From positions 527,673-591,672 of the forward strand of contig OY970376.1 in assembly GCA_963718755.1 (NCBI GenBank): DNA of 64,000 nt, written 5' to 3'. This document shows positions 2,738 to 59,156 of the stretch, one piece after another (the first letter of the stretch is position 1; each line of letters starts with the position of its first letter). Below the pieces are notes generated by a model. That model saw only the letters and a program-made list of their open reading frames with translations, did no database searches and had not been told where the DNA came from. The translations under genes were made by a program, and so were the position numbers. This DNA is from an uncultured Solirubrobacterales bacterium. Its GTDB lineage: Bacteria > Actinomycetota > Thermoleophilia > Solirubrobacterales > 70-9.

Positions 2738-4618
2738 TCAGCCGCCGGTCCGGTGCAGCTGCTCGTGGATCTCGCGCGCCAGCTTGCCCGGCACGCCCGG
2801 CACCGCCTCCAGCTCCTCGCGGCTCGCCGCGAGGAACCGCTCGGGGGTGCCGAAGTGGTTGAGGAAGGCGCGCTTGCGGGCGGGGCCAACGCCCTTGAGG
2901 CCGTCGAGGACCGAACCGGTCATCGCCCGGTCGCGGCGGCCGCGGTGGTGATCGATCGCGAAGCGGTGCGCCTCGTCGCGCACCCGCTGCAAGAGCTTCG
3001 AGGCCTCGGACTCCGCCGCCAAGTCGATAGGAACGGGGCGGCCGGGGATGTAGACCTCCTCCTGCCGCTTGGCCAAGGAGACGACCGTGACGCCGCGCTC
3101 GGCGAAGGGTCCGAGCGCTCGCATCGCCGCGCTGAGCTGCCCTTTGCCGCCGTCGACGACGACCAGCGACGGCAGCGCCGCAAAGCTCTCGTCGCGCTTG
3201 CCGTCGTGCGGAGAGAGATCGACCTGCTCCTCGTAGCGGCTGACACGGCGGCTCAACACCTCCTGCATGGAAGCGAAGTCGTCGGACCCGTTGCTGCGCT
3301 CACCGCGGACCCGGAAGCGTCGGTAGTCGGCCTTCTTGGTGGCGCCCCCCTCGAAGACGACCATCGAGGCGACCGTGTGCTCGCCGCCGATGTTGGAAAT
3401 GTCGAAGCCCTCGATCCGAACCGGCAGCTCCTCCATCCGCAGCGCCTCGCGCAGGTCGGCGAGCGAGTCGACGCGGCGCTGGCGCCGGTGCTCGCGCCGC
3501 AGCCGGTCCTGATCGAGGGCGAGCCGGGCGTTGCGCTCGGCGAGCTCGCGCAGGCGGCGCTTGTCGCCGCGCTCGGCGACGCGCACCTCGACCGGCGAGC
3601 CGCGCTTCTCCCCCAGCGCCTCGGCCAGCAGCGCCGCCCGCTCGGAGAGGTAGGGGCCGACGACGATCGTGCGCGGCATCGCCGGCGAAGCCGAGTAGTA
3701 CTGGCCGATGAACTCCTCGGCGACCTCGGCCAGGTCGCGTTCGGCCTGGTTGTCGAGGTAGAAGCTCTGGCGCTCAGCGAGGATGCCGTCGCGCACCTGG
3801 AAGACCTGGGCGTTGGCGTCCGCCCCTTCGCTTGCGACACCGATCAGGTCGGCGGTGCCAACCGAGCCGCCGGCGATCCGCTGCCGCTCGAAGAGCGACT
3901 GGACCGCTTTGAGGCGGTCGCGGTGCACCGCGGCCCGCTCGAACTCCCGCGCCGCCGCGGCTTCCTCCATCTTCGCCTGCTCGTCGGCCTCGACCTGTCG
4001 GTAGCGGCCGGAGAGGAAGTCGACGATCGCGTCGATGTTGCGCCTGTACTCCTCCTGGCCGATGTAGCCGACGCACGGCGCCCCGCAACGCTTGATGAAG
4101 TAGTCGAGACAGGGGCTGCCGGAGCGCCGGCCGGGCTCGGCGCCCTCGCAGGTGCGGAACTGGAAGAGCTTGCCGAGCAGGTCGAGCGTCTCCCGCACCC
4201 GCTTGGCGCTGGAGAAGGGGCCGAAGTAGGCGCGGCCGGCGCGGTGCTTCTCGCGAGTGAAGTAGACGCGCGGGTAGTCCTCGTCGAGGCTGACGCAGAC
4301 GTAGGGATAGGACTTGTCGTCGCGCAGGCGGATGTTGAAGCGCGGCCGGTGGCGCTTGATGAAGCTCTGCTCGGCGAGCAGCGCCTCGGCCTCGTTGGCG
4401 GTGACGAGGACGTCGATTCGGTCGACGCGCGAGGTGAGGCGCGTCTCGCCGCCGGAGAAATGCGAGCCAACCCGCTTGCGGATCGAGCGGGCCTTGCCGA
4501 CGTAGAGCAGCTCGCCATTGGCCTCATAGAAGAGGTAGACGCCGGGCGCGTCGGGAAGCTCGCGGCGCTGCCGCGCCAGCCGCTCCGCGCGCGAGGTCTC
4601 TCGGTTGCTTTCGCTCAC
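2738..4618 (-). CDS. uvrC: Excinuclease ABC subunit C
   Basis: GIY-YIG motif (GVYLFY...LYVGKA), central UvrC region and C-terminal HhH. The 892-aa track ORF is over-extended. GTG at 4618 (VSESNRE...) lies just before the GIY-YIG domain and removes the overlap with the crotonase gene. Confidence 0.9.
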   Translation of the reverse strand: MSESNRETSRAERLARQRRELPDAPGVYLFYEANGELLYVGKARSIRKRVGSHFSGGETRLTSRVDRIDVLVTANEAEALLAEQSFIKRHRPRFNIRLRDDKSYPYVCVSLDEDYPRVYFTREKHRAGRAYFGPFSSAKRVRETLDLLGKLFQFRTCEGAEPGRRSGSPCLDYFIKRCGAPCVGYIGQEEYRRNIDAIVDFLSGRYRQVEADEQAKMEEAAAAREFERAAVHRDRLKAVQSLFERQRIAGGSVGTADLIGVASEGADANAQVFQVRDGILAERQSFYLDNQAERDLAEVAEEFIGQYYSASPAMPRTIVVGPYLSERAALLAEALGEKRGSPVEVRVAERGDKRRLRELAERNARLALDQDRLRREHRRQRRVDSLADLREALRMEELPVRIEGFDISNIGGEHTVASMVVFEGGATKKADYRRFRVRGERSNGSDDFASMQEVLSRRVSRYEEQVDLSPHDGKRDESFAALPSLVVVDGGKGQLSAAMRALGPFAERGVTVVSLAKRQEEVYIPGRPVPIDLAAESEASKLLQRVRDEAHRFAIDHHRGRRDRAMTGSVLDGLKGVGPARKRAFLNHFGTPERFLAASREELEAVPGVPGKLAREIHEQLHRTGG

Positions 4619-4681
4619 TTGGCCAAAGGGTAGGCTCCTGGCCAGTTGGCCAACCTTCCACACGGATACGGAGAGAGCGAG

Positions 4682-5506
4682 ATGACCACCGAGACGATCA
4701 GCCCGCCCGAGTTGAGCACGCTGCGAATCGACGTCGATGGCGAGATCGGCACCCTCACCCTCGATCGACCCGACGCCTTCAACGCGATGAGCCCCGAGAT
4801 GATCTTCGACCTTGGGACGGCCTTCGCCTGGTTCGCCGACCAGGCGCCGCTGCGGGCGCTGATCATTACCGGCGCCGGTAAGGCCTTTTGCTCTGGCGGC
4901 GACATCAACGGCTTCAAAGCCGGGGTCGAAGACGACTCGATCGACCTGCCGGCACAGGTGCGGCGCGGAGCCGAGGCGCTGCACGTCGCGATCGTCGACC
5001 TGCGCCGGATCCCATATCCGGTGATCGCGGCGGTCAACGGCGCCGCCGCCGGCGCGGGCTTCTCGCTGGCCCTGGCCTGCGACTTCCGCATAGCCGCCGC
5101 GGATGCCTTCGTCGCCTGCGCCTACGGCCGCATCGGCGCCTCGCCCGACGGTGGCATGACCTACTTCCTGCCGCGCATCGTGGGGCCCAGTCGCGCGCTG
5201 GAAATCTTCCTCGAGGACCCCAACCTGACGGCGGCGGACGCGCTCGAGGAGGGCCTGGTCTCGGAGGTCGTCCCCCCCGACGAGCTGATGGACGCCGCGC
5301 GAGCGAAGGCCGAGAAGCTCGCCACGAAGGCTCCCCACTACGTGAAGATGGCCAAACGGCTCTGCGGCGTCAGCATCGAGAACAGCATCAACGACCACCT
5401 GCAGCTGGAGCGGCACGGAATCGCCGACAGCATGGCGACGGAGGATCTGCGCGAAGGCGCAATCGCCTTCTTCAGCGGCGAGACGCCCGAGTTCAAGGGT
5501 CGCTGA
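4682..5506 (+). CDS. Enoyl-CoA hydratase/isomerase (crotonase) family protein
   Basis: Crotonase motifs ITGAGKAFCSGGDI and AAVNGAAAGAGFSLALACD. ATG at 4682 is preceded by GGAGAGAGCGAG; the track start at 4646 is also possible. Confidence 0.85.
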   Translation: MTTETISPPELSTLRIDVDGEIGTLTLDRPDAFNAMSPEMIFDLGTAFAWFADQAPLRALIITGAGKAFCSGGDINGFKAGVEDDSIDLPAQVRRGAEALHVAIVDLRRIPYPVIAAVNGAAAGAGFSLALACDFRIAAADAFVACAYGRIGASPDGGMTYFLPRIVGPSRALEIFLEDPNLTAADALEEGLVSEVVPPDELMDAARAKAEKLATKAPHYVKMAKRLCGVSIENSINDHLQLERHGIADSMATEDLREGAIAFFSGETPEFKGR

Positions 5507-5589: not shown

Positions 5590-6030
5590 ATGAAGAAGCT
5601 CGCCTCCCTCCTCGTCCTCGCCCTAGTCGCAGCCGCCCTCGTCGCCTGCGGTGACGACGACTCGACCACGACGACGACCACGTCCGAAACCAGCTCCGGT
5701 GCAGCAGCGGAAGGTGGCGAAAAAGCCGGCGGCGAAGCCGGCGGCGCGACCCTCGCATTCGAAGCCGATCCCAGCGGCGAACTCGCCTACACCAGCACCT
5801 CCGCGGAAACCGAAGCCGGCGAAGTCACCGTCGACTTCAAAAACCCACAGGGCCTCAGCCACGATGTCGCGATCGAAGACTCGAAAGGCGAAACCGTGGG
5901 CAAAACCGACGTGATTGGCGAAGGCGAAACCTCCACCAAGGTCAATCTGAAATCGGGCGAATACACCTTCTACTGCTCGGTCCCCGGCCACCGCGAAGCA
6001 GGGATGGAAGGAACGCTGACTGTCAAATAG
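5590..6030 (+). CDS. Cupredoxin (plastocyanin/azurin-like) lipoprotein
   Basis: MKKLASLLVLALVAAALVAC lipobox signal, Thr/Ser linker, and type-1 copper ligand pattern HD...YCSVPGHREAGM. The internal ATG of the 380-aa track ORF is preceded by GGAAAGGA. Confidence 0.8.
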   Translation: MKKLASLLVLALVAAALVACGDDDSTTTTTTSETSSGAAAEGGEKAGGEAGGATLAFEADPSGELAYTSTSAETEAGEVTVDFKNPQGLSHDVAIEDSKGETVGKTDVIGEGETSTKVNLKSGEYTFYCSVPGHREAGMEGTLTVK

Positions 6031-6072
6031 GCGGTCCCTGACCGGCGCATCTCGGCGTCCTCGGTCACTCGC

Positions 6073-7362
6073 GTGCCAGCGCACGCCACGTTCCCTGCGT
6101 CCTTGATCTGCTTGGCCAGGAACCGCCTATTCTGGATTGCAGTTGGCGTTTGGCTCGCTACGCGTGGGTTGATCGTTGCCAACGTAGGTTTTTGGGGTGA
6201 CCTGCGGCTGCAGGACATCAATAACTATGAGGTCTGGTCTCACTACCTGACGGCCAACCATGCGATTCCGGGCGGGGAATCGTGGCAGTACCCGCCCGGC
6301 GCGGCCTTCCTGATGCTCCTGCCGCGCCTCGGGCCGGGGACTTATGGCGAGTCCTTCGTGGGTCTGATGCTGCTCGTCGACCTTGCCGGCCTTGCCTTGC
6401 TGGCGCTGCTCGGCCGCCGGTCAGGCAACTACACCGGCGTATGGGTGTGGCTGCTGGGCATGCCCCTGCTCGGCACCTTCGCGGTGCTGCGCTTCGACCT
6501 CGTGCCTGCGGTGATCGGGATCGCAGCGCTCGTCGTCATCCACCGCCGCCCCAACTGGTTTGGCGTCCTGGCGGGACTGGGGGCGGCGATCAAGGTCTGG
6601 CCGATAGTCCTGCTCTTCGGCGAGTGGGACCGGCGCCGGCTCATCCACGCGGTCACCGCGGCGCTCGGAACGATCGCACTCGTAGTCGTGATCTCGACGC
6701 TTGCCTTCGGCGGTTCCGCCTCGTTCCTGGGTGAGCAAAGTGAGCGCGGGCTCCAGGAGGAAGCGGTGGCGACGGTGCCATGGCAGGTGCAAGCGATAGT
6801 CACGGGAGAGGGGCCCACCAGGGAGATCCGATACGGAGCGTGGGAGATCGCCACCCCCGGCGCGGACACGGTTGCCAGCCTGCTCAAGTGGCTGACCGTT
6901 GCAGCGCTTGGTGCTGCGGCAGCATGGTGGTGGTACCGGGCCAGGGCGATCTGTGCTGGCCGAGTCGACCTTGCCGATGCGGCAGTGAGCCGGGACTTCG
7001 TCTTCACCATCGTCCTGCTCCTCGTCGTCACGAGCCGGGTGCTCAGCCCTCAATTCATGGTCTGGCTCCTGGGCCTCTCAGCAGTGGTCCTGACGGCAGG
7101 GAGCACCCGCCTGGCTCGACCCGCCTGGCTGGTGCTCGGGGCAACGATCCTCAGCACCAGCCTGTTCAAATCACCAGAGAACATCGTGATCCGAGACCTG
7201 GCACTGCTGGCCGCCACCATGGACGCAGCGATCGCCATGATCGGCATGCTGAGAAAGCCACTAGCTCCAACAGACCTCGTCGGGCCCATGGCCAGAACCG
7301 CTCAGGCTGAGCCAAAGAGAATCACCGAGCCGGTTACACGGCGGGCGCCATCACGCGGGTAA
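6073..7362 (+). CDS. Polytopic membrane protein, possibly a GT-C type glycosyltransferase (DUF2029/GT87-like)
   Basis: 429-aa ORF with about 10 hydrophobic helices. The N-terminal loop and general layout are reminiscent of actinobacterial mannosyltransferase-like DUF2029 proteins. The family call is by eye only. Confidence 0.5.
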   Translation: MPAHATFPASLICLARNRLFWIAVGVWLATRGLIVANVGFWGDLRLQDINNYEVWSHYLTANHAIPGGESWQYPPGAAFLMLLPRLGPGTYGESFVGLMLLVDLAGLALLALLGRRSGNYTGVWVWLLGMPLLGTFAVLRFDLVPAVIGIAALVVIHRRPNWFGVLAGLGAAIKVWPIVLLFGEWDRRRLIHAVTAALGTIALVVVISTLAFGGSASFLGEQSERGLQEEAVATVPWQVQAIVTGEGPTREIRYGAWEIATPGADTVASLLKWLTVAALGAAAAWWWYRARAICAGRVDLADAAVSRDFVFTIVLLLVVTSRVLSPQFMVWLLGLSAVVLTAGSTRLARPAWLVLGATILSTSLFKSPENIVIRDLALLAATMDAAIAMIGMLRKPLAPTDLVGPMARTAQAEPKRITEPVTRRAPSRG

Positions 7363-8278: not shown

Positions 8279-8677
8279 CTATGCAGCCGCCAATCGCAAC
8301 GGCGTGTGCCTGGCGATCGTCTCGAAATCGGCATCTGCACTGAGCAACTCCGCTTCGTTTCGGATTGCGACAGTGGCGATGAGGCAATCTGCAAGTTGCC
8401 GTGGGGTCTCCCCCCTGCGGTGACAGAATCGATAGAGCTCCGCCGCATTCTCGTAGTCCATCGGACCGTCGAGGGGAAGAAAGCGCAGGCTGTAGAGGAA
8501 GCGCCGCAACCGGTCCCGGTCCGCGTCATCGCGAGCACCCGCGAGAACCTCCATCACGACGATGTCGGTAGTCGCAAGCTCGGCCTCGCTATCAAGAGCG
8601 GACGCCAACCAGCGGTCGACCGCACTGCCGGTCGACCGCAGGAACTCGATCCAGGCGGAACTATCGACGAGGGTCAC
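8279..8677 (-). CDS. vapC: PIN-domain toxin VapC
   Basis: MTLVDSSAWIEFL N-terminus with conserved acidic residues typical of PIN. 4-nt overlap with the upstream antitoxin gene. Confidence 0.85.
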   Translation of the reverse strand: MTLVDSSAWIEFLRSTGSAVDRWLASALDSEAELATTDIVVMEVLAGARDDADRDRLRRFLYSLRFLPLDGPMDYENAAELYRFCHRRGETPRQLADCLIATVAIRNEAELLSADADFETIARHTPLRLAAA

Positions 8678-8886
8678 AGCTCCGGTATCTCCCGCGGAGT
8701 GCGCATCTCGTCGAGATTCCCGTCCCAGCCGTGCCCCTCCATGGCCAGCATTTCCTCGCGGCTCATCGGCTCGCCGACAAGCTTGCGCAGGGCAAGGTCG
8801 ACCGCCTCCCGTTTACTGCGCAGGCGGTAGATGCGCATCGCGCGATCCACCAGGTCATCATCGATCTCGATGTTGGTGCGCGTCAT
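8674..8886 (-). CDS. vapB: VapB-type antitoxin (DUF2191/RHH-like)
   Basis: MTRTNIEIDDDLVDRAMRIYRLRSKREAVDLALRKL is the typical N-terminus of this antitoxin class. The internal ATG at 8886 is preferred over the track start at 8940. Confidence 0.75.
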   Translation of the reverse strand: MTRTNIEIDDDLVDRAMRIYRLRSKREAVDLALRKLVGEPMSREEMLAMEGHGWDGNLDEMRTPREIPEL

Positions 8887-8936
8887 CACACCAGAATACA
8901 CCTGAAGGTGTATAGCCTCTCTGACGGGGGTCATGG

Positions 8937-10265
8937 TCACGCAACCAACCTCACTTCGAAGCTGGGGACGACGAGTGCTCCGGCCCCGTCGAGAAGAGCA
9001 AAGATGCGGCTGACGTAGGCCTGGGTCTCGGGGTAATCAGGGATGCAGTCGCAGGCTTCTACGGGGGCGGGGCCGGCGTTGTAGGCGGCCAGGGCGAGGG
9101 ATGGGTCGCCGAACTGGCGCAGCAGGTCGGACATCAGGTGTGCCTGGGCGTCGATCGCTTCAACTGGGTCGTAGGGGTCGCGGAGGCCATAGGCCGCGGC
9201 TGTCGTCGGCATAAATTGGGCAATGCCCTGCGCCCCCGCCGGGGAGCCTGCGTTGGGATCGAAGTTCGACTCCGCCATCAGCTGGCCGGCAAGCAGAGCC
9301 GCTGAGACGTTCCAGCGGGTCGCCGCGCGCAAGATTGTCGCCCGGAACCGAGCCGGGACGAAGGATGGGAGGCCGCCGGCACCCGCGAGCGAGCCGTCTC
9401 CCCCGCTGCCGACACTCACGATCCCGTTTCCGGCGGTCGAGCACGGCGCTGGACCGGCTGTGAAGCCGTAATGCCAGGCCTCCCACGAGTAGCGCTGGAC
9501 GAAGCCGAAGCGCGATGCGTTCTCAGCCAGCCAGCCGTACGCCGTTTCCGGCCCGAGGTCGAGCTCGGTCGCGCAGCGGTGCAGGGACTTGCCCGGCGGC
9601 GCGACCCAGGTCGGGTCCGGGTGAGCGGCAAAGAGCGCCGCCTGTTCGGCGTCGGAGCGGAAGCCCGAGTTGACGACCAGGCTCAGCCCGGCGTGCGATG
9701 CGGCCGCGGCCATCTGGTCGAAGGCAGCGGCCACGTCGGGGCGCATCCCCTCCCCCGACCTGTAGGCCAGCGGGCCGCTGTAGCCGCCGCCACTCGCCAT
9801 TGATGGCGTCGAGGTGCCGCCAGCGGCGGGCGCAGCCGCTTCGGCCACTGCAGATGCCTCGACCCGGTGCTTATCGACGCTGCCAACGACCAGAGCCTTG
9901 ACCCGCACCGGGGCGAACGAAATTGCGTCCGGAAAGGAGATCCACAGGCGGGCCGCAGCCACTTCGTTCGCCTCTGCCACCTCTTCTGCCGCCCCTCGCG
10001 CCCGCAGCAGATACACGGCCTTCTCCATATGAACCGGGTTTGGCAGCCCGTTCGGCAGGGTCGGCGGGGCCAACAGCCGCGGCAGGTCGTCGCGCATCGA
10101 GCGCGCCGCCGATATCGCCGCCAGGTCCGCCGCTCGCTGCGCCCGCCCCTTGCCGGTGACCGCCCCCGCGATCGCCACGAGAGCAAGTGCAGCGAGGATC
10201 AACGCGAAGGCGCCGCCGAGCGCCAAGATCAACGCCTGCCCATCCTCCCTGCGATTCGCGTCCAT
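8937..10265 (-). CDS. Tri-domain envelope protein: TadG-like N-terminal anchor + VanY/M15 D,D-carboxypeptidase + SLT lytic transglycosylase
   Basis: N-terminus GQALILALGGAFALILAALALVAI...RAQRAADLAAISAA (Tad_N-like). Middle SGFRSDAEQ...PGKSLHRCATELD...EAWHYG (VanY H-x-D and xWH motifs). C-terminus AESNFDPNA...GIAQFMP...AAYNAG (SLT). Confidence 0.75.
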   Translation of the reverse strand: MDANRREDGQALILALGGAFALILAALALVAIAGAVTGKGRAQRAADLAAISAARSMRDDLPRLLAPPTLPNGLPNPVHMEKAVYLLRARGAAEEVAEANEVAAARLWISFPDAISFAPVRVKALVVGSVDKHRVEASAVAEAAAPAAGGTSTPSMASGGGYSGPLAYRSGEGMRPDVAAAFDQMAAAASHAGLSLVVNSGFRSDAEQAALFAAHPDPTWVAPPGKSLHRCATELDLGPETAYGWLAENASRFGFVQRYSWEAWHYGFTAGPAPCSTAGNGIVSVGSGGDGSLAGAGGLPSFVPARFRATILRAATRWNVSAALLAGQLMAESNFDPNAGSPAGAQGIAQFMPTTAAAYGLRDPYDPVEAIDAQAHLMSDLLRQFGDPSLALAAYNAGPAPVEACDCIPDYPETQAYVSRIFALLDGAGALVVPSFEVRLVA

Positions 10266-10335
10266 GCGGCGACCCTGCCGAGACAGGACGCGCGGGTGGT
10301 GCGCTCAGTCGAAAATCTGTGTGACGGTTTCCAGG
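10266..10335 (-). promoter_or_regulatory. Conserved leader/promoter block, copy A (upstream of the tri-domain hydrolase gene)
   Basis: About 70 percent ungapped identity over ~67 nt with 12241-12310. Both copies abut the start codon of a Tad-like gene and begin GCGGCGACCCT on the plus strand. Confidence 0.6.
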
Positions 10336-10339
10336 CGCG

Positions 10340-10780
10340 TTACGCGCTGAGATCGACGATCTCGATCAGATGCTCGAGACCAAGGAGATCCTTGGAGTTC
10401 AGCGTGTACAAGGGCAGATCGTGAGCAAGAGCGGTAGCGGCAATCAGGAGATCGACGACGCGAGAGCCTCGCGGCTTGCGACCGATTCGTTCGACTGCCG
10501 CGGAAACGCGGCCATACGCTTGAGCACAAATGAAGTCGAAGGGAAGCGCTTCGATGCCGGCTTCGACCCGCCGCAGATGTCGGCGGCGACGAGCCTTCTC
10601 GAACTCCTTGCGAGCTACATGCAGCCCGCCGGCCAGCTCGGCCATCGTCAATGCGGAGATCGCCAACTCCAGGGGTAGTTGAGGAAGTTCAGTCTCCTTC
10701 AAGCGCACCGCGACAGACGTGTCGATCAGTGCGCGCCGCCCATGCGTACCAGTCTTTCGGGCTGGGATCGGCGACGGCAT
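10340..10780 (-). CDS. vapC: PIN-domain toxin VapC (second copy)
   Basis: ALIDTSVAV...LTMAEL...VVDLLIAATALAHDLPLYTLN PIN motifs. The start is uncertain: the first in-frame ATG near the domain is 10780, and the track ORF extends to 10885. Confidence 0.7.
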   Translation of the reverse strand: MPSPIPARKTGTHGRRALIDTSVAVRLKETELPQLPLELAISALTMAELAGGLHVARKEFEKARRRRHLRRVEAGIEALPFDFICAQAYGRVSAAVERIGRKPRGSRVVDLLIAATALAHDLPLYTLNSKDLLGLEHLIEIVDLSA

Positions 10781-10901
10781 CGAGGTCGCGGCGAAGTTCC
10801 TCGTAGTCGATGACGGGTGCGTCGGCAAGAGCCTCTGCAAGCTCTTTCGCCGGTACGAACTGGCGCTTCTGACGCCCTCGCTCATTTGTCATCTTTCGCA
10901 T
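10689..10901 (-). CDS. Putative antitoxin partner of the second VapC
   Basis: Small acidic ORF (MRKMTNERGRQKRQFVPAKELAEAL...) directly upstream of the PIN gene and overlapping it. Starts at 10901 or 10892, overlapping the stop (10882-10884) of the upstream 228-aa gene. Confidence 0.5.
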   Translation of the reverse strand: MRKMTNERGRQKRQFVPAKELAEALADAPVIDYEELRRDLDAVADPSPKDWYAWAARTDRHVCRGALEGD

Positions 10902-11568
10902 CTTGTTGTCTACGGTAGCACGCAGCTCGAGTCTCACGCGGCCCATGCATGGAAAGGAGGCGGTCGACCACTCGGGGCGGAAGAAATGCACCGCCGTGCA
11001 GAGACACACCGAGCAGGGCCATCCGATCGACGAGCCAGGGCAGCGGGTGTTTCTGTACGACGACGCTCAGGGGCTGGGCGATAAGGTCGCGAACGGCAAG
11101 TGCGGTCAGGGCGCGGGTATCCGCCAGGTCGGCCCGAAGTAGCACGCCTGTGGCCGGGATGCGCGGCTCTTCGAGCGTTGGTCGCGCGAGCGACGGTGGC
11201 AGGTGGATTACGGCCACCGACTCGCGTACGACGGGTATCGCCGCCGCGATCTGCTCGATCCCCGCCGCCTCCGACGACAGGACCAAGTGGCAGATCTGGC
11301 CGCGGGAGGCGATCCGGGCATCGGGGAGGTGGGCACTGAGGCGCTCCTCGAGCGCCCGGGCCCCCGCGGTCGCGATCAGCGAGGGGCGCGGCGGGCGGCC
11401 CTCGCTGAGATCGACCAGCAGGGCGGCGCGATCCGGCTCTGAGGCGGCGCAGGCGAGGGCCGCGGCAGCGGCCCTCGCGCCGCTCGCGGCGCCCACCGCC
11501 GTGACCAGGACGACCGGGCCGCGCCTGGTAGGAGCCGCCCAGCCGCTCATCGGTGAGGACTCGTTCAC
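10882..11568 (-). CDS. Hypothetical protein, possible degenerate ParA/MinD-like (TadZ/CpaE-like) fold lacking Walker A lysine
   Basis: 228-aa ORF translationally coupled (4-nt overlap) to the upstream TadE-like gene. PVVLVTAVGAASGARAAAAALA occupies the position where ParA-type proteins have the P-loop. The fold call is inference only. Confidence 0.45.
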   Translation of the reverse strand: MNESSPMSGWAAPTRRGPVVLVTAVGAASGARAAAAALACAASEPDRAALLVDLSEGRPPRPSLIATAGARALEERLSAHLPDARIASRGQICHLVLSSEAAGIEQIAAAIPVVRESVAVIHLPPSLARPTLEEPRIPATGVLLRADLADTRALTALAVRDLIAQPLSVVVQKHPLPWLVDRMALLGVSLHGGAFLPPRVVDRLLSMHGPRETRAACYRRQQDAKDDK

Positions 11569-11894
11569 CTAGGCCTTACCGCCGCGGACGAGGTGACGGT
11601 GAGGCGGTCGGCGATCGGCGGCAGCGGTGACGGCGGGCGCAGGCGCACGGTGACCTGCCCGCCCCGGATCGATACCTCGACCTCGTCCTCGGCCCAGTCC
11701 GGCACCGCGTCGCGAGCAGCGACCGCCGCCGGCCGCCCCGTGGCAAGCGCCAGCGCCCCGGCCTCGGCAGCGCCGTCGGCGAGGGTCAGCGAGTAGCCGG
11801 TCACAAGCAGTTGCAGAGCCAGCAGGCCGGCGAGCAAGAGCGCCGGCAGGGCGGCGACCAGCTCGACCGTGCTCTGCCCCTCCTCCCTACCCAT
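11565..11894 (-). CDS. TadE/TadF-like pseudopilin
   Basis: N-terminus EEG-QSTVE-LVAALPALLLAGLLALQLLV, i.e. a G/xxxxE prepilin-peptidase motif plus a hydrophobic helix. 109 aa. Confidence 0.7.
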   Translation of the reverse strand: MGREEGQSTVELVAALPALLLAGLLALQLLVTGYSLTLADGAAEAGALALATGRPAAVAARDAVPDWAEDEVEVSIRGGQVTVRLRPPSPLPPIADRLTVTSSAAVRPR

Positions 11895-12240
11895 CGCCCG
11901 GCTCCAGCGCGGCGCCAGCGCCGACCGTCAGCCGTGGCAGCGCTGGAAGCAGTCTCGGTATGACGACTCGAACCGAGACACCATCGCCGTCGCTCACCTG
12001 CGCCCCATCCCGCATCGACAGCGGCAGCGCCCGCCGTGCCGCGACCGCGGCGTCACCCCCGACCAGGGCCGCCCGTGCTCCCGCCCGGGCCGCGACCGCG
12101 GCCGACCACAATGCGTGCCCGGCAAGAACGATCTGCGCCGCCACCAGGACCGCCAGCAGCAGGAACGGGATCACGGCAACCACCTCGACCGACGCGGTCC
12201 CGTCCTCCCTGCGAACGCTGCTGGCGGCCTGGCGCGACAC
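11887..12240 (-). CDS. TadE/TadF-like pseudopilin
   Basis: N-terminus EDG-TASVE-VVAVIPFLLLAVLVAAQIVL, i.e. a G/xxxxE motif plus a hydrophobic helix. 117 aa, GTG start at 12240. Confidence 0.7.
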   Translation of the reverse strand: MSRQAASSVRREDGTASVEVVAVIPFLLLAVLVAAQIVLAGHALWSAAVAARAGARAALVGGDAAVAARRALPLSMRDGAQVSDGDGVSVRVVIPRLLPALPRLTVGAGAALEPGDG

Positions 12241-12310
12241 GCGGCGACCCTCCCAGGCAGAAACGCGCGAGTGGCGCGCTCAAACGAAAAGTTCCGTGAC
12301 GGCTCCGCGC
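12241..12310 (-). promoter_or_regulatory. Conserved leader/promoter block, copy B (upstream of the first TadE-like gene)
   Basis: Paralogous to 10266-10335 (see that feature). Confidence 0.6.
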
Positions 12311-12328: not shown

Positions 12329-12703
12329 TCAGTACGTGTTCGCCTCGGTCCAGACCCGCCAGATCGCCGCCACCGAGGCGCCGAGCAGGAGGATCCAGGC
12401 GAGCGTGCCGCCGCCGCTCGCGAACATCTCGTCGCTGCCGGCGATCAGCAGCGCGATCAAACCCAGGGCGGCGTAGAGAATCGCGCGGCGGCCATCGGTC
12501 AAGGCGGCGAGGGTCAGCTGCTGCTGACGGCTCAGCACGTACAGAGACCAGGCGATCGCGGCAAGGAAGCCCATCGTGATCGCGGTCAGGATCGTGTCCG
12601 CGGCGTTGCCGCCGGCGGGGACGAATGCCACCACCACGGCAAGCAGCATCACGATCGCGACGTTGCGCAGGGTCCGCACGGGGAAAATTGTACGGCTACT
12701 CAC
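12329..12703 (-). CDS. Small integral membrane protein (4 predicted helices), unknown function
   Basis: 124-aa hydrophobic ORF overlapping the stop of the preceding small membrane ORF. Last gene of the pit operon. Confidence 0.5.
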   Translation of the reverse strand: MSSRTIFPVRTLRNVAIVMLLAVVVAFVPAGGNAADTILTAITMGFLAAIAWSLYVLSRQQQLTLAALTDGRRAILYAALGLIALLIAGSDEMFASGGGTLAWILLLGASVAAIWRVWTEANTY

Positions 12704-12939
12704 TTGCTCATCATCACGACGATGCCGATCACGACCGCCGCCAGGGTCGAGGCCAGCGCCAGACCACCGAGCGCCGCAGCGGCCCCGGCCGCCAAGGGCC
12801 GGCCGCCGCGGCTGAGGTCGGCGAAGCGCGCGCCGCCCCAGATCGCCACCGAGAAGACGAGGGTGACGCCGACACCGGCGACCAGCGAGGCGATCACGGT
12901 CTTCACCAGGTCCCCGGTCTGGACCAGCGTCGCCACCAT
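12700..12939 (-). CDS. Small membrane protein (2 predicted helices), unknown function
   Basis: ATG at 12939, 3 nt after the pit stop codon: MVATLVQTGDLVKTVIASLVAGVGVTLVF... The upstream part of the 229-aa track ORF lies antisense-frame within pit and is rejected. Confidence 0.45.
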   Translation of the reverse strand: MVATLVQTGDLVKTVIASLVAGVGVTLVFSVAIWGGARFADLSRGGRPLAAGAAAALGGLALASTLAAVVIGIVVMMSK

Positions 12940-27258: not shown

Positions 27259-27753
27259 CTAGCCGCAGACGGGCCAGGGGCTTGAGCCGGACTGGGCGTA
27301 GAGCAGCGCTGCCCTGTAGTCCTGCTCGTCCTCGGGAGCTGCTGCAGGGTCACCGCTGCCACCTACAGACGCCCAGGTTTCAAACGAGAACTGGTACTTG
27401 CCTCGGTAGCTGCCGTCGCTCGAGACGATGGTGGGGTCGCCGCCGGACTCGCAGGATGCGATGGATTCGAGGGTTGCCATCGAAACGCCGCCCGGGAGGG
27501 TCGCGAAGGCTTCCTCGCGTTCGCGCTCGATGCGCGCGCGGCGAGCCGCTTGGATGCGCTTCGCTGCCTTGCGCATCTCGATGTGGATCCTCGGGCCACG
27601 GAGGAGCAACGGGGCCTGTGCAGCCGGTCGCGCGTCCGCCAAGCCGATACGGGGATCGGGGTCGGGCGCGTCTGGCGCCGCGAGCGCGGCAGCCGGGACG
27701 ACCAGAGCGATCAGGACGAGAACGGATATGGAGTATGTGCGTTTTATGAGCAA
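27259..27753 (-). CDS. Secreted Rpf-like (resuscitation-promoting-factor type transglycosylase-like) protein
   Basis: TTG start, signal peptide, and C-terminal CESGGDPT...GKYQFSFETW...PWPVCG motif of the transglycosylase-like (Rpf) domain. Confidence 0.8.
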   Translation of the reverse strand: MLIKRTYSISVLVLIALVVPAAALAAPDAPDPDPRIGLADARPAAQAPLLLRGPRIHIEMRKAAKRIQAARRARIEREREEAFATLPGGVSMATLESIASCESGGDPTIVSSDGSYRGKYQFSFETWASVGGSGDPAAAPEDEQDYRAALLYAQSGSSPWPVCG

Positions 27754-34105: not shown

Positions 34106-34354
34106 CTAAGAAGCGCGAATCCGGGCGTAGAGCGTCTCCGGAGCAACGTCCGCTCCGTTTGGCCAAACGATCGTTCCCAGCTCCTCATCCAACTCGACTT
34201 GCCCGAAATAGCTTGGATCCCGCAACGGCTCGAAGACCCCTCGCCAAGTGCGAGCGGAAAAGTCGATCTCTCCCTCACTACCGTCCTCGAAGCACAGGTG
34301 AATCCGGTGATCCCCCACTACCTCGACGCGCGTGACGTGGACAATCGGCTCCAT
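34106..34354 (-). CDS. DUF2442 family protein
   Basis: 82 aa from ATG 34354 (MEPIVHVTRVEVVGDHRIHLCFEDGSEGEIDF...). Always-paired partner of DUF4160. Confidence 0.7.
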   Translation of the reverse strand: MEPIVHVTRVEVVGDHRIHLCFEDGSEGEIDFSARTWRGVFEPLRDPSYFGQVELDEELGTIVWPNGADVAPETLYARIRAS

Positions 34355-34364
34355 GCGCCCAATG

Positions 34365-34625
34365 CTACGGCAGCGGATCGACAGGGGCCAAAGGCTGTTC
34401 GTTCCTTGCCCGCTCCCAATTGAGTTCGAGCTCCTCGCGGTGAATGCGTGCCCACTTGCGCACCAGGGCCAGGCGTTTATGGGGTAGGCCGCCTTGCAGG
34501 ATGCTGAGATCATCAATCGCAATCGAGGCATCATGCCCCGCATATCGAACGTGGAAATGCGGCAGGCCGTGCTCTTCGTAATACATCGTGATGACGATCC
34601 CGTAAAAGCTGCTGATTCGCGGCAC
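34365..34625 (-). CDS. DUF4160 family protein
   Basis: GTG at 34625 gives VPRISSFYGIVITMYYEEHGLPHFHVRY, the canonical DUF4160 N-terminus. Confidence 0.7.
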   Translation of the reverse strand: MPRISSFYGIVITMYYEEHGLPHFHVRYAGHDASIAIDDLSILQGGLPHKRLALVRKWARIHREELELNWERARNEQPLAPVDPLP

Positions 34626-34729
34626 ACCCCGAACCTGCAGGCCCCAAGCGCGCATGTGGTGCGCACTTCGTGCCGCCTCCGTTCCAAGAAAGAGACGGCA
34701 CAAAGACATCTATCTGATGGAGGCGGCCG

Positions 34730-35075
34730 GAATCGAACCGGCGTCTCTGGCCGTAGCGCGAAGGTTTCTACAGGTTTAGCCGGCGCTTGATTCTCGTCTC
34801 CCGGGGTCCGCGCCGGCGGGCACTGCGGGAGACAAAGCCCTCTGAAATTTCCCCTTGCGGACGGGGCGATCCGCCTGGGTAAGCCCGCAATTGAAGCCGG
34901 AACCCCCCTCCGCGGGCGGGAGAGGGCCGACTCTCACTCACTTAGATCTAACTAAGCAGCGAGGGCGAACTCATGGTCCGCACGTATTGGTTGGTGCCGG
35001 TGTTTAACGAGGCCTCCGGCAACCTCGACCTGCAACCGTTCGCACGGATCGACCAGATCGAAGCCTGTCGCCCCC
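34730..35075 (-). ncRNA. ssrA: tmRNA (transfer-messenger RNA)
   Basis: 5' GGGGGCGACAGGCTTCGA..., 3' ...GCCGGTTCGATTCCGGCCGCCTCCA. The acceptor stem GGGGGCG/CGCCTCC has G3-U. Internal tag frame ...GCG GAC CAT GAG TTC GCC CTC GCT GCT TAG (ADHEFALAA*) at 34952-34981. CCA is not encoded. smpB lies 3 kb away. Confidence 0.85.
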
Positions 35076-36593: not shown

Positions 36594-38195
36594 CTACACC
36601 CGTGAACGCCTCTTGAGGTCTTCAGCAAACTCCCTTGGCAGGCCAGGAATCTCATCCAGCTCGTCGATCGAGCTGAAGCGGCCGACGCGCTCGCGGTGGG
36701 CAAGCAGGCGGGTCGCCTGGGTGACGGACAGCCCTTGGGCGCGTAGCTGCTCGAAGCTGACGTTGTTGAGTTCGATCGTCTCCCCGACTTGGGCCGCGGG
36801 CGGCGATGGTTGCGGGGGCGACGGCGGGCCTGGTTGCGGCTCGGGCTGCGGCGGAGCTGGTGGAGGACCCGGCTGAGGCTCTGGGGCTGGTGGCGGCGGT
36901 TGGGGTACTGGGGGCTGAGGCGTGGGTGACGGCGAGGGTGGCGGGCTGGGCGGCTGCGGACCAGGGGGCTGTGGGGCGGCCTGCGGAGGCAGCGGCTGAG
37001 GGGTCAACGAGGCCTCGCCTCCGCCCTGCACCGCCCCGAGCACGGCCTGCTCCGCTTCGGCGGCACGGCGCTCGGCCTCGCGCGCGCGCTCCTCTGCCTG
37101 GGCGACGCTCTCCTCGATCTCGCGCAGGCGCTGCTGGCGCTCTGCCTCTTCCGCTTTCAGCTTCGAGAGGCGCTCGGCCTCGGCAGCGCGTCGTTCGGCC
37201 GCCTTGGTCCGCTCCTCGATCTGGCGCAGGCGCTCCTGCGCTTCGGAGAGCGAGCGCTCCTGCGCTTCGCGCTCCTGCTGCAGGCGCTGCTCGGCCGTCT
37301 GCAGGTCTGGGGCCGCCGGCGACGGCGACGGCGGCACCGCAGCCATGCTCTGCGTCGTCTGGCCCGCCGCGGCCTGCGCCTGGCGCGCCTCGGCCTCGCG
37401 CTGGAGCCGCTCCGCCTCGGCGATGCGCCGATCGGCCTCAGCCCGAATTCGCTCCTCCTCGCGCTGAATTTCTGCCACCTTGTCCTGCACCCGCTGTTCG
37501 GCCGTTGCCGGGTCGTAGCCGGCTGGCAGAGGCGGCGGAGGAGGGACGCTCGGCGGCGCGGGAGGCTGCATTGGCGGCGGTGCCGGGGGCGGCGGAACCG
37601 CAGCGGTGGGCGCCGGCGGGACTGGTGGCGGCGGAACCGGCGGCGGCATCACCACAGGCGGCACCGGCTGGGTCTGGGCCGGTGGCTGGGGCGGCTGGGT
37701 AGTAGCCGAGCTCTCCTGCTCGAACAGCGCCCGCTCTTGAGCGGCCCGCGCGGCGGCGAGGTCGCGCTCGGCCTTGACCGCTTCCTTCTTCGCGCGGCGG
37801 CCGGAACCGCCGGCCTTGGTCGGCTTGTGGCGTCGCTCAGCCCGCTTCTGGGCGCGTTCCTGGCGGCGCCGCTTCGCCTCTTCGGTGCGCCGTTTGCGGT
37901 GTTCGCTGCGCGCTGCGCGCTGCTGCGCGCGCGCCTGCTTGCGTTTCTCCTTGGCGTTCAAAGGTTTGCCACCGGGCGGCGGCGGGGGTGGTGGTGGGGC
38001 GCCTGAGCTTGCGACGCCGGCGGGCTGAGACGCCGGGGACGCGCCGGGGGCCGGGGGCGACTTGCCGGCCCCTGCCTTCTTGCTCTGGTCCTTGCTGCGC
38101 CGCTGGACGATGCTGATCACCAGCAGGAGGAGAAGGATCGCCACCACCAGCCCGGCGACGAAGTACTGGACGTTGTCGCTGACGAAATCAGCCAT
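36594..38195 (-). CDS. Membrane-anchored Pro-rich / coiled-coil protein with C-terminal helix-hairpin-helix (ComEA-like) DNA-binding motif
   Basis: N-terminal TM (YFVAGLVVAILLLLLVISIV) then a Lys/Arg-rich segment, PPPxP tracts and ERxAAEAER heptad-like repeats. C-terminal FEQLRAQGLSVTQATRLLAHRERVGRFSSIDELDEIPGL. Confidence 0.7.
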   Translation of the reverse strand: MADFVSDNVQYFVAGLVVAILLLLLVISIVQRRSKDQSKKAGAGKSPPAPGASPASQPAGVASSGAPPPPPPPPGGKPLNAKEKRKQARAQQRAARSEHRKRRTEEAKRRRQERAQKRAERRHKPTKAGGSGRRAKKEAVKAERDLAAARAAQERALFEQESSATTQPPQPPAQTQPVPPVVMPPPVPPPPVPPAPTAAVPPPPAPPPMQPPAPPSVPPPPPLPAGYDPATAEQRVQDKVAEIQREEERIRAEADRRIAEAERLQREAEARQAQAAAGQTTQSMAAVPPSPSPAAPDLQTAEQRLQQEREAQERSLSEAQERLRQIEERTKAAERRAAEAERLSKLKAEEAERQQRLREIEESVAQAEERAREAERRAAEAEQAVLGAVQGGGEASLTPQPLPPQAAPQPPGPQPPSPPPSPSPTPQPPVPQPPPPAPEPQPGPPPAPPQPEPQPGPPSPPQPSPPAAQVGETIELNNVSFEQLRAQGLSVTQATRLLAHRERVGRFSSIDELDEIPGLPREFAEDLKRRSRV

Positions 38196-58488: not shown

Positions 58489-59100
58489 TCACAGGCGTCG
58501 TGTGAAGGTGATCGCCACGATCCGGACGGCTCCAGCTTGGCGAAGGGCTCGGGCGCAGGAGGAGAGGGTGGCGCCGGTGGTTAGGACGTCGTCGATCAGC
58601 AGGACACTGCGCGGAACCTCGCCTTTCGCCCGGATGCGCGGTGGGTGGCCTATGCGCTGTGCGCGGCGCTTGCCCACCTGGCGGCCGCCGCCGCGACGAC
58701 TGAGACAAGCGCTGAGGGGGAGCTCGGTTCGCTGGGCCAGGGCCGCCGCGATCTCGGCTGCTGGGTCGAAGCCGCGGATTGCCGAGCGCAGGGGTGCGGT
58801 TGGGACGGGGACGATCGTGCCGCTGAGCATGGTGCCCGGAGCAAGCCAGTGAATTCGTTCTGCCATCAGGCCGGCGACCGGGAGCAGGCGACGGAACTTG
58901 AGGGCGGCAATCAGGTCGCGAGCTACGGCCTCGTGCGGTGCCGATGACCAAGCTCGATCGAGTCCCGCGGCACCGACGCCCAGCAAAGGCTCGGTCGCGG
59001 CAAGTCGCCGGGCGCAGCGGCTGCAGAGGGTCGCTTGCTGTCGACAGCCTCGCCCGCACGCGGCGCAAAGAGGCGGGACGAGGGCGTGGAGAAAGCTCAC
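58489..59100 (-). CDS. comF: ComF family phosphoribosyltransferase-domain protein
   Basis: N-terminal Cys4 (CAACG...CSRC) and PRTase motif VLLIDDVLTTGATL. Confidence 0.8.
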   Translation of the reverse strand: MSFLHALVPPLCAACGRGCRQQATLCSRCARRLAATEPLLGVGAAGLDRAWSSAPHEAVARDLIAALKFRRLLPVAGLMAERIHWLAPGTMLSGTIVPVPTAPLRSAIRGFDPAAEIAAALAQRTELPLSACLSRRGGGRQVGKRRAQRIGHPPRIRAKGEVPRSVLLIDDVLTTGATLSSCARALRQAGAVRIVAITFTRRL

Positions 59101-59156
59101 CCGCCGATCGTTGGCGAGCGTGGCGCGCGCGTGGCGCGCCGAAGGTCAAATTTCCG

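Follow-up and report, generated by a model that had tools for sequence, protein, structure and literature searches.

Here, we describe a gene block in an uncultured Solirubrobacterales bacterium that joins two small TadE-like proteins, predicted minor (pseudo)pilins, to a putative bifunctional peptidoglycan hydrolase and to a protein with a degenerate MinD/ParA-like fold. The block lies within 64,000 nucleotides (nt) of contig OY970376.1 (assembly GCA_963718755.1, positions 527,673 to 591,672), a stretch that we call the window and to which all unprefixed positions refer. The GC content of the window is about 68%, and its close relatives are all metagenome-assembled genomes (MAGs) of uncultured Solirubrobacterales. 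The core of the locus, from its upstream end, consists of the following features:

12241-12290, minus strand: promoter-like element before tadE1, TTTGAGCGCGCCAC-N19-AGGGT-N6-GTG, scoring 56 bits against the position weight matrix (PWM) of the element
11887-12240, minus strand: tadE1, 117 amino acids (aa), TadE-like minor (pseudo)pilin with G/TASVE and a single N-terminal transmembrane helix
11565-11894, minus strand: tadE2, 109 aa, TadE-like minor (pseudo)pilin with G/QSTVE
10882-11568, minus strand: z228, 228 aa, cytoplasmic, degenerate MinD/ParA-like fold, member of an uncharacterised family
about 10689-10901 and within 10340-10885, minus strand: VapBC-like pair, an antitoxin-like open reading frame (ORF) and a PIN ORF, true starts uncertain
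10266-10315, minus strand: promoter-like element before hyd442, CTGAGCGCACCAC-N19-AGGGT-N6-ATG, PWM score 51.9 bits
8937-10265, minus strand: hyd442, 442 aa, bitopic, with a Tad_N/Rv3654c-like anchor followed by VanY/M15B (173-268) and SLT/GH23 (311-402) domains

A preliminary description of this DNA had reported a run of four co-directional minus-strand genes. All four ORFs are present, but they do not form a contiguous series: the VapBC-like pair separates z228 from hyd442. Stop and start codons overlap at the tadE1/tadE2 and tadE2/z228 boundaries, and the 4-nt overlap of the z228 start with the tadE2 stop agrees with the translational coupling proposed for the 228-aa gene. The GC content at third codon positions (GC3) of the ORFs in the block is 0.79-0.88, typical for coding sequence here. 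Hyd442 is matched over its full length, at 100% identity, by database protein P0121, and the database call of the z228 gene (P0001) starts six codons further in than the ORF called here.

TadE1 and TadE2 each possess a single N-terminal hydrophobic helix, and they are paralogous (hhalign probability 99.4%, E 4e-21). The prepilin-peptidase motif G/xxxxE followed by a hydrophobic helix, which had been pointed out in both proteins, has proved to be a conserved feature: G(-1) and E(+5) hardly ever vary among about 50 orthologues or species (G14 and E19 in TadE1; G6, Q7 and E11 in TadE2), and they are also found in the deep-branching relatives L061 and L062, with alanine in place of glycine at -1 in two cases. 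We take the motif as a predicted prepilin processing site at which cleavage would occur, and its invariance argues that these genomes encode a prepilin peptidase and a pilin-type assembly at some site. The description of the two proteins as TadE-like holds, although a failure against TadE-type models, which would have spoken against it, is avoided in part only. Both match the Pfam TadE model PF07811 across its full 43 positions, but with 14.3 (TadE1) and 15.0 bits (TadE2) against a gathering score of 22.9, and the NCBIfam model TadE_Rv3655c (NF041390), which has a cutoff of 40, gives 25.9 bits (E 1e-5) for TadE2 and 16.9 bits for TadE1. Among the orthologues, 19 of 26 for tadE1 and 18 of 26 for tadE2 match Pfam TadE at E <= 0.1 (37/52 in all), the best of them at E 2.3e-5. 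A search of PDB sequences with the TadE2 profile yielded nothing meaningful.

The 442-aa protein had been described as a TadG-like anchor fused to two peptidoglycan-active domains, and profile searches bear this out. Its N-terminus matches Pfam Tad (PF13400) over residues 9-55 with 24.0 bits, above the gathering score of 22.3, and the first half of the Rv3654c-family model TIGR03816 with 27.7 bits, against a cutoff of 50.95. The VanY and SLT domains are recognised by Pfam at E values of 6.2e-14 and 9.6e-20, respectively; the best NCBIfam match in the SLT region is a flagellar assembly lytic transglycosylase model, far under its cutoff. Conservation of the catalytic motifs was drawn from 36-46 orthologues. 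In the VanY domain, the zinc-site and catalytic positions (H229, D236, E262, H265) do not vary in 36 sequences, and neither do E332, S333 and A394-Y-N-A-G398 in the SLT domain. Because these residues are invariant, both activities predicted from the sequence, VanY peptidase and SLT lytic transglycosylase, are probably real. The protein has a single transmembrane segment (residues 8-40), at the cytoplasmic edge of which G9-Q10 is invariant; there is no glutamate at +5.

Z228 has no transmembrane helix and matches no Pfam or NCBIfam model, the CbiA, ParA and CpaE models included. More than 1050 homologues are found at E <= 1e-3, all of them unnamed ("hypothetical"), and the family accounts for 255 clusters in a library at 50% identity. 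An AlphaFold 2 (AF2) model with a predicted local distance difference test score (pLDDT) of 71.5 was compared with known structures by Foldseek, and the top matches are exclusively of the MinD, ParA, FlhG, FleN, Wzc, HypB and NifH type (E 3e-4, template-modelling score 0.36-0.41). Additionally, the z228 profile weakly matches the Wzc kinase in the PDB (E 0.2), over a region spanning strand 1, the P-loop, the helix and strand 2. Aligned by eye to the canonical MinD P-loop GKGGVGKT, the corresponding VGAASGARA of z228 lacks both Walker-A lysines. Neither lysine occurs in 45 homologues, no member contains GxxxxGK[ST], and in deep lineages of the family the loop varies and even its glycines are not kept. 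This agrees with the earlier impression of a ParA/MinD-like protein without the Walker A lysine, and we read z228, on the predicted model, as a MinD/ParA-like domain that is catalytically dead.

A scan of species-representative genomes yielded 54 z228 loci, all from MAGs labelled Solirubrobacterales, Actinomycetes or Actinomycetota, several of them complete chromosomes of 2.4-2.8 Mb. Mapping of the window proteins by tblastn revealed a near-universal order, ppk-PhoU_div-pit-(s78)-m124-tadE1-tadE2-z228-[variable gap]-hyd442-...-maoC. The block always lies in a core-genome stretch, from pit to uvrC-rapZ; in more divergent lineages the core stays between pit and uvrC and the upstream neighbours differ. 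The pairing of pseudopilin genes with a murein hydrolase gene, first noticed in this single genome, is therefore shared, in syntenic order, by at least 54 species-level genomes and by more than 1000 metagenomic protein clusters. One member of the z228 family stands in a different context. At locus L058 (DASZUW010000178.1), a family member at 5768-6481, with 133 bits to the family profile, neighbours DUF3846, which lies upstream, a comM/YifB-like gene (assigned by eye), dprA and the genes of a UvrD helicase and a PD-(D/E)XK nuclease; this locus carries neither TadE genes, nor a hydrolase gene, nor the promoter-like element. Its context is a singleton in the database, and its nearest relatives (e.g. 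P0398, on a 3.1-Mb contig) show the standard synteny.

The link between z228 and the hydrolase extends to gene fusion. In nine of the ten long z228-family proteins scanned, the z228 domain is followed by Tad and/or VanY/SLT domains. The cleanest is P0390 (L060, 128-2131), a 667-aa z228-Tad_N-VanY-SLT fusion encoded on a JGI metagenome contig and followed by maoC; other fused proteins, from deep-branching relatives, are P0380 (L061), P0382 (L062), P0354, P0357, P0305 and P0316. Tad_N scores 21.6-29.5 bits in seven fused relatives, and the "GQ" at the start of the helix is kept in the fusions, though it lies about 230 residues from the N-terminus. In this arrangement, the z228 domain would face the cytoplasm and the hydrolase the outside, with the Tad_N helix spanning the membrane between them, which argues for direct physical cooperation of z228 and the hydrolase. 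Together with the shared promoter-like element described below, the fusion makes the coupling stronger than the preliminary description could see.

Where the two genes are separate, their junction is an insertion hotspot. In several genomes z228 and hyd442 abut or overlap with nothing inserted. The VapBC-like pair occupies the junction in the window and in many relatives, and it is absent or replaced in many others. The inserted PIN ORF matches PF01850 at E 1e-9 and an NCBIfam VapC model below threshold, and local GC dips to 0.64 at the pair, which is not a member of the module. A second, canonical VapB/VapC pair (8279-8940, minus strand) follows hyd442, with vapB (8674-8940) overlapping the hyd442 stop, and this position is kept in many relatives; the hydrolase gene is thus flanked on both sides by toxin-antitoxin modules. 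The idea, raised by these flanking modules, that the block serves anti-phage defence was rejected, as PADLOC gave no match for any of eight proteins.

The roughly 50 nt preceding the start codons of tadE1 and hyd442 align without gaps at about 77% identity and define a common 47-nt element, TTTGAGCGCRCCAC-N19-A(C/G)GGT-N6-start. In the related loci, at a PWM threshold of >= 18 bits, this element is found only at the starts of tadE1 (49) and hyd442 (31-32) within 1.2 Mb, and hyd442 genes that abut z228 mostly lack it. In the window, the form GCGCRCCAC-N19-AnnnT-N6-start occurs four times in 64 kb at a constant distance from the start codon; a stricter pattern occurs three times, against 0.05 expected. 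The invariant A...T of the element lies 6 nt before the start codon and resembles what we take to be the -10 hexamer of leaderless actinobacterial mRNAs. This spacing suggests leaderless transcripts and the action of some sigma factor or regulator. The element belongs to no Rfam family (the sole Rfam match in the window is the transfer-messenger RNA, tmRNA), and a GC hairpin within it shows no covariation beyond slid controls. An RNA leader or riboswitch was rejected on these grounds, and we regard the element as a DNA-level promoter or operator. A scan for consensus sigma-70 promoters and terminators was uninformative.

The remaining two copies in the window precede genes outside the block:

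34626-34675, minus strand: element before a DUF4160-like gene, the gene named by eye
59101-59142, minus strand: element before a ComF-like gene (58489-59100, 203 aa)

The ComF-like protein combines CxxC...CxxC with a phosphoribosyltransferase domain, and its gene lies upstream of hpf-secA; its assignment comes from this architecture and position only. The element precedes the orthologous gene in 11 of 15 close metagenomic relatives, which makes the ComF-like gene a candidate for co-regulation with the block. The DUF4160-like gene forms a pair with a DUF2442-like gene (both assigned by eye; 34106-34625, minus strand) directly 3' of the tmRNA gene (34715-35075, minus strand). The 3' side of the tmRNA gene is a classic integration site. 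The window also contains a 533-aa ORF (36594-38195, minus strand), its 5' end probably over-extended, with a C-terminal ComEA-type HHH_3 domain; it is located downstream of smpB, a gene for an RNB-domain (RNase R/II-like) protein, ctp, ftsX and ftsE.

Two further conserved genes stand immediately upstream of the block, and their membership is uncertain:

12329-12703, minus strand: m124, a 124-aa conserved membrane protein with about four hydrophobic segments
12700-12936, minus strand: s78, a 78-aa conserved protein with two transmembrane segments, just after pit

The phosphate cluster had been taken to begin with the next gene upstream. Both pit and ppk do lie upstream, but m124 and s78 intervene between the block and pit, and the order continues with the PhoU_div gene, ppk, a GT4 glycosyltransferase gene, ppx, phoU and pstBACS. 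M124 has no Pfam or NCBIfam match. It adjoins tadE1 in every case and is inverted in two genomes (L040 4328-4672, L044 8882-9226), so its co-transcription with the block is not obligatory. S78 matches no NCBIfam family, contains no G/xxxxEY, and was not seen by tblastn in nine loci with a more divergent pit. The ideas that s78 might be an unrecognised Flp pilin and that m124 might act as a small platform protein have no backing from motifs or hidden Markov models (HMMs), and both were rejected. Downstream of the block follow the canonical VapBC pair, cupin, MaoC and GT87 genes, uvrC and rapZ. The uvrC ORF (2738-5416, minus strand) encodes 892 aa, against 612-654 aa in relatives, and its GIY-YIG domain starts at residue 291, so that the ORF start is probably over-called or the protein has an N-terminal extension. 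Another wall-active protein is encoded about 15 kb from the block (27259-27753, minus strand); it is 164 aa long and has a Transglycosylas domain (PF06737) of the Rpf type.

Our preferred reading, at about even odds, is that the locus encodes the distal half of an actinobacterial Tad-type (type IVc) pilus or pseudopilus, comprising minor pilins and an enzyme that would breach the wall; the motor would be encoded elsewhere, and the fibre may serve DNA uptake. Domain content, intact catalytic residues, conservation, synteny, the fusion in older lineages and a shared promoter-like element fitting leaderless mRNAs are observed. That the prepilins are processed and assembled into a fibre, that the hydrolase acts where this assembly takes place, that z228 has the part given below, that a motor exists elsewhere and that transformation is involved are the steps that we infer. 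In this scheme, TadE1 and TadE2 would be minor pilins that are cut by a prepilin peptidase at G/xxxxE and assembled through E+5. Hyd442 would be a TadG/TadF-type, cargo-bearing member of the minor-pilin set without E+5, or would be held beside the set, and by cutting both stem peptides (M15B) and glycan strands (GH23) it would open the thick wall locally for the fibre. From the cytoplasmic side, z228 may position or gate the hydrolase. An invariant G/xxxxE would imply a peptidase and pilin packing, and hence a Tad-type assembly machine elsewhere; the TadA/B/C motor, the major pilin and the peptidase would accordingly be encoded outside the locus. Finally, the promoter-like element held in common with the ComF-like gene offers a lead that the fibre may serve DNA uptake.

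Several observations weigh against this interpretation, foremost the missing motor. As had been remarked, no motor genes are visible nearby: among the ORFs scanned over the 64-kb window, which were picked by a GC3 filter that leaves out stretches such as about 49.6-51.1 kb, none matches T2SSE, T2SSF, Flp or A24 peptidase. A TadA-type Walker-A motif, G.[TS]GSGKT[TS], is absent from the window and 62 related loci (1.18 Mb in total, reaching 10 kb either side of the block); the block is thus not the tail of an adjacent tad operon. Furthermore, T2SSF is missing from the Pfam labels that had been assigned beforehand to 7 related loci, and neither an Flp major pilin (G/xxxxEY) nor a TadV/A24 peptidase is found in the window or its flanks. 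A motor elsewhere in the genome is therefore an assumption, the evidence reaching as far as the 64-kb window and the 10-kb flanks.

The proteins themselves raise further difficulties for a Tad-type (pseudo)pilus. TadE1 and TadE2 of the window score under both the Pfam and the NCBIfam curated cutoffs. The N-terminal 160 residues of hyd442 have no homology to TadE1 or TadE2 that hhalign can detect, and the AF2 model of hyd442 (from 36 close orthologues; pLDDT 52.7) is too poor for a fold search or for reading a pilin fold. The structural match of z228 is weak, with a template-modelling score of about 0.4, and z228 is not a TadZ, being a single domain without the nucleotide-binding loop. In the fused forms, the cytoplasmic domain of about 200 aa before the Tad_N helix is unlike known prepilin leaders, and a plain signal-anchor fits better. 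In seven genomes (L011, L045, L046, L049, L053, L054 and L055), a block of 4.7-8.6 kb stands between z228 and the hydrolase gene; it appears metabolic (2-oxoacid:ferredoxin oxidoreductase, assigned by eye). Lastly, the promoter-like element also precedes the DUF4160-like gene and is lacking from the ComEA-like gene of the window, so the idea of a competence regulon is thin.

Several of these points would be accommodated by motor-independent wall remodelling, an account that we regard as tentative and somewhat improbable. According to it, the hydrolase would be a housekeeping autolysin for growth, division or turnover, with no pilus or pseudopilus involved: a signal-anchored enzyme under the control of a cytoplasmic, dead MinD-like protein, with the TadE-like proteins as bitopic partners or regulators. 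The block is beside a motor in none of the 62 loci, no motor was found in the 64 kb, and no Flp-like gene is part of the block, which sits in the core genome between pit and uvrC-rapZ. The z228-transmembrane-hydrolase fusion looks like a cytoplasm-to-wall regulator and not like a prepilin, and the hydrolase has no E+5. This account is hard to reconcile with a G(-1)/E(+5) pair that scarcely changes in either small protein over about 50 species and the deep lineages. Such constancy is difficult to explain without prepilin processing and pilin-type packing, as a charged residue in a transmembrane helix would otherwise be expected to drift. The hydrolase "GQ" is likewise invariant at the cytoplasmic edge of its helix, fusions included, and the promoter-like element is shared with the ComF-like gene and not with division or wall genes.

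A self-contained, motor-less device, in which the two TadE-type pseudopilins would function without TadA/B/C, together with z228 as a dead MinD-like scaffold and with the bifunctional hydrolase on its pilin-type anchor, seems to us unlikely. Such a minimal apparatus is possible, yet less likely than one served by an assembly machine encoded elsewhere, of which the invariant processing motif would be the trace. Less radical is a variant in which the hydrolase would be a tip-mounted minor pilin that drills the fibre's way through the wall; in the fused forms, prepilin peptidase would then free the hydrolase from its cytoplasmic "leader" of about 200 aa.

A narrower form of the Tad-type (pseudo)pilus interpretation makes the block a competence-specific pseudopilus accessory set that would work with ComF, ComEA/EC and DprA. 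As part of a regulon for natural transformation, it would make an opening in the wall through which a short pseudopilus could take up DNA. Tad genes reportedly drive transformation in Micrococcus luteus. The element before the ComF-like gene, in the window and in 11/15 relatives, would fit this proposal, as would the ComEA-type HHH_3 protein in the window and the L058 family member that adjoins a comM-like gene and dprA. We nevertheless judge it distinctly unlikely: the identity of ComF derives from architecture and position, the ComEA-like gene lacks an element that the DUF4160-like gene has, and the L058 context occurs once. A non-functional remnant of a degraded tad operon, or high-GC gene-calling noise, is a very remote prospect and effectively refuted by conservation, since the ORFs, at 50-90% identity, are kept in at least 54 species along with their order and overlaps, the catalytic residues and the processing motifs, GC3 values of 0.79-0.88 are coding-like and a dedicated promoter-like element is conserved, despite the sub-threshold TadE matches of the window, the lost nucleotide-binding loop of z228, and the toxin-antitoxin modules and other genes inserted in the block.

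The passage of type IV-like fibres, and of Tad pili especially, through peptidoglycan is an open point, and for bacteria with thick walls the block offers a concrete candidate, open to testing, for a subunit that would breach the wall as an integral part of the machine. Additionally, z228 defines an uncharacterised protein family of more than 1000 clusters for which there is no Pfam model, the promoter-like element is specific enough to be used for regulon mapping, and a possible link to DNA uptake concerns an abundant, uncultured soil lineage. Were it true that these genomes have no Tad motor, a motor-independent role for pseudopilin-type proteins would be new.

Among known systems, the tad operon of Mycobacterium tuberculosis has the order tadZ-A-B-C-flp-tadE-tadF (PMC9531140), and the block resembles the tadE-tadF tail of that operon. 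As with tadE (Rv3655c) and tadF (Rv3654c), the genes encode small G/xxxxE proteins with a single N-terminal helix, and TadE-type genes are followed by an Rv3654c-type N-terminus, with weak but specific matches to NF041390 and TIGR03816. Unlike the M. tuberculosis operon, none of the 62 loci has a preceding tadZ/A/B/C or flp; the last member here bears about 300 aa of hydrolase domains, and a degenerate MinD-like gene is intercalated. Hyd442 can also be compared with TadG, a predicted minor pilin that is uncharacterised (PMC12307814). Common to the two are a Tad_N helix followed by ...QRAADLAA..., the lack of E+5 and a large cargo domain at the C-terminus. The cargo of hyd442 is VanY plus SLT, whereas that of TadG is usually vWA; moreover, no motor is adjacent to hyd442, and in older lineages its N-terminus is preceded by a cytoplasmic domain of about 200 aa.

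In its predicted fold, z228 bears a weak resemblance to TadZ/CpaE, MinD, FlhG and FleN, with which it has in common an N-terminal strand-loop-helix...hydrophobic strand-D-x-D layout, and like TadZ/CpaE it is genetically associated with pilus-type genes. TadZ consists of a receiver-like domain and an ATPase domain. Z228, by contrast, is a single domain of about 200 aa; it has no Walker-A lysines and matches no CbiA/ParA/CpaE HMM.

Peptidoglycan hydrolases dedicated to an envelope-spanning machine are exemplified by PleA of Caulobacter. Like FlgJ, VirB1, EtgA and TagX, hyd442 has a GH23 lytic transglycosylase domain, and its gene is linked to genes for structural parts of a fibre or secretion machine. 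It differs from them in being bifunctional (M15B plus GH23), in its pilin-type anchor, and in belonging to a presumed monoderm actinobacterium. With the LdcB/VanY carboxypeptidases and the Slt/Mlt autolysins it shares an intact H-x6-D...E-x-x-H zinc site and an intact E-S...AYNAG, but here both domains are in one Tad_N-anchored chain that is co-regulated with pseudopilin genes. The combination of a TadE pair, a dead MinD-like protein and a Tad_N-VanY-SLT hydrolase under one promoter type was not found in the literature searched, and according to a 2025 structural paper neither a peptidoglycan hydrolase nor a lytic transglycosylase has been reported for the Tad pilus (PMC12307814). The block may be the first genetic link of Tad-type pilus parts to a dedicated cell-wall cutter.

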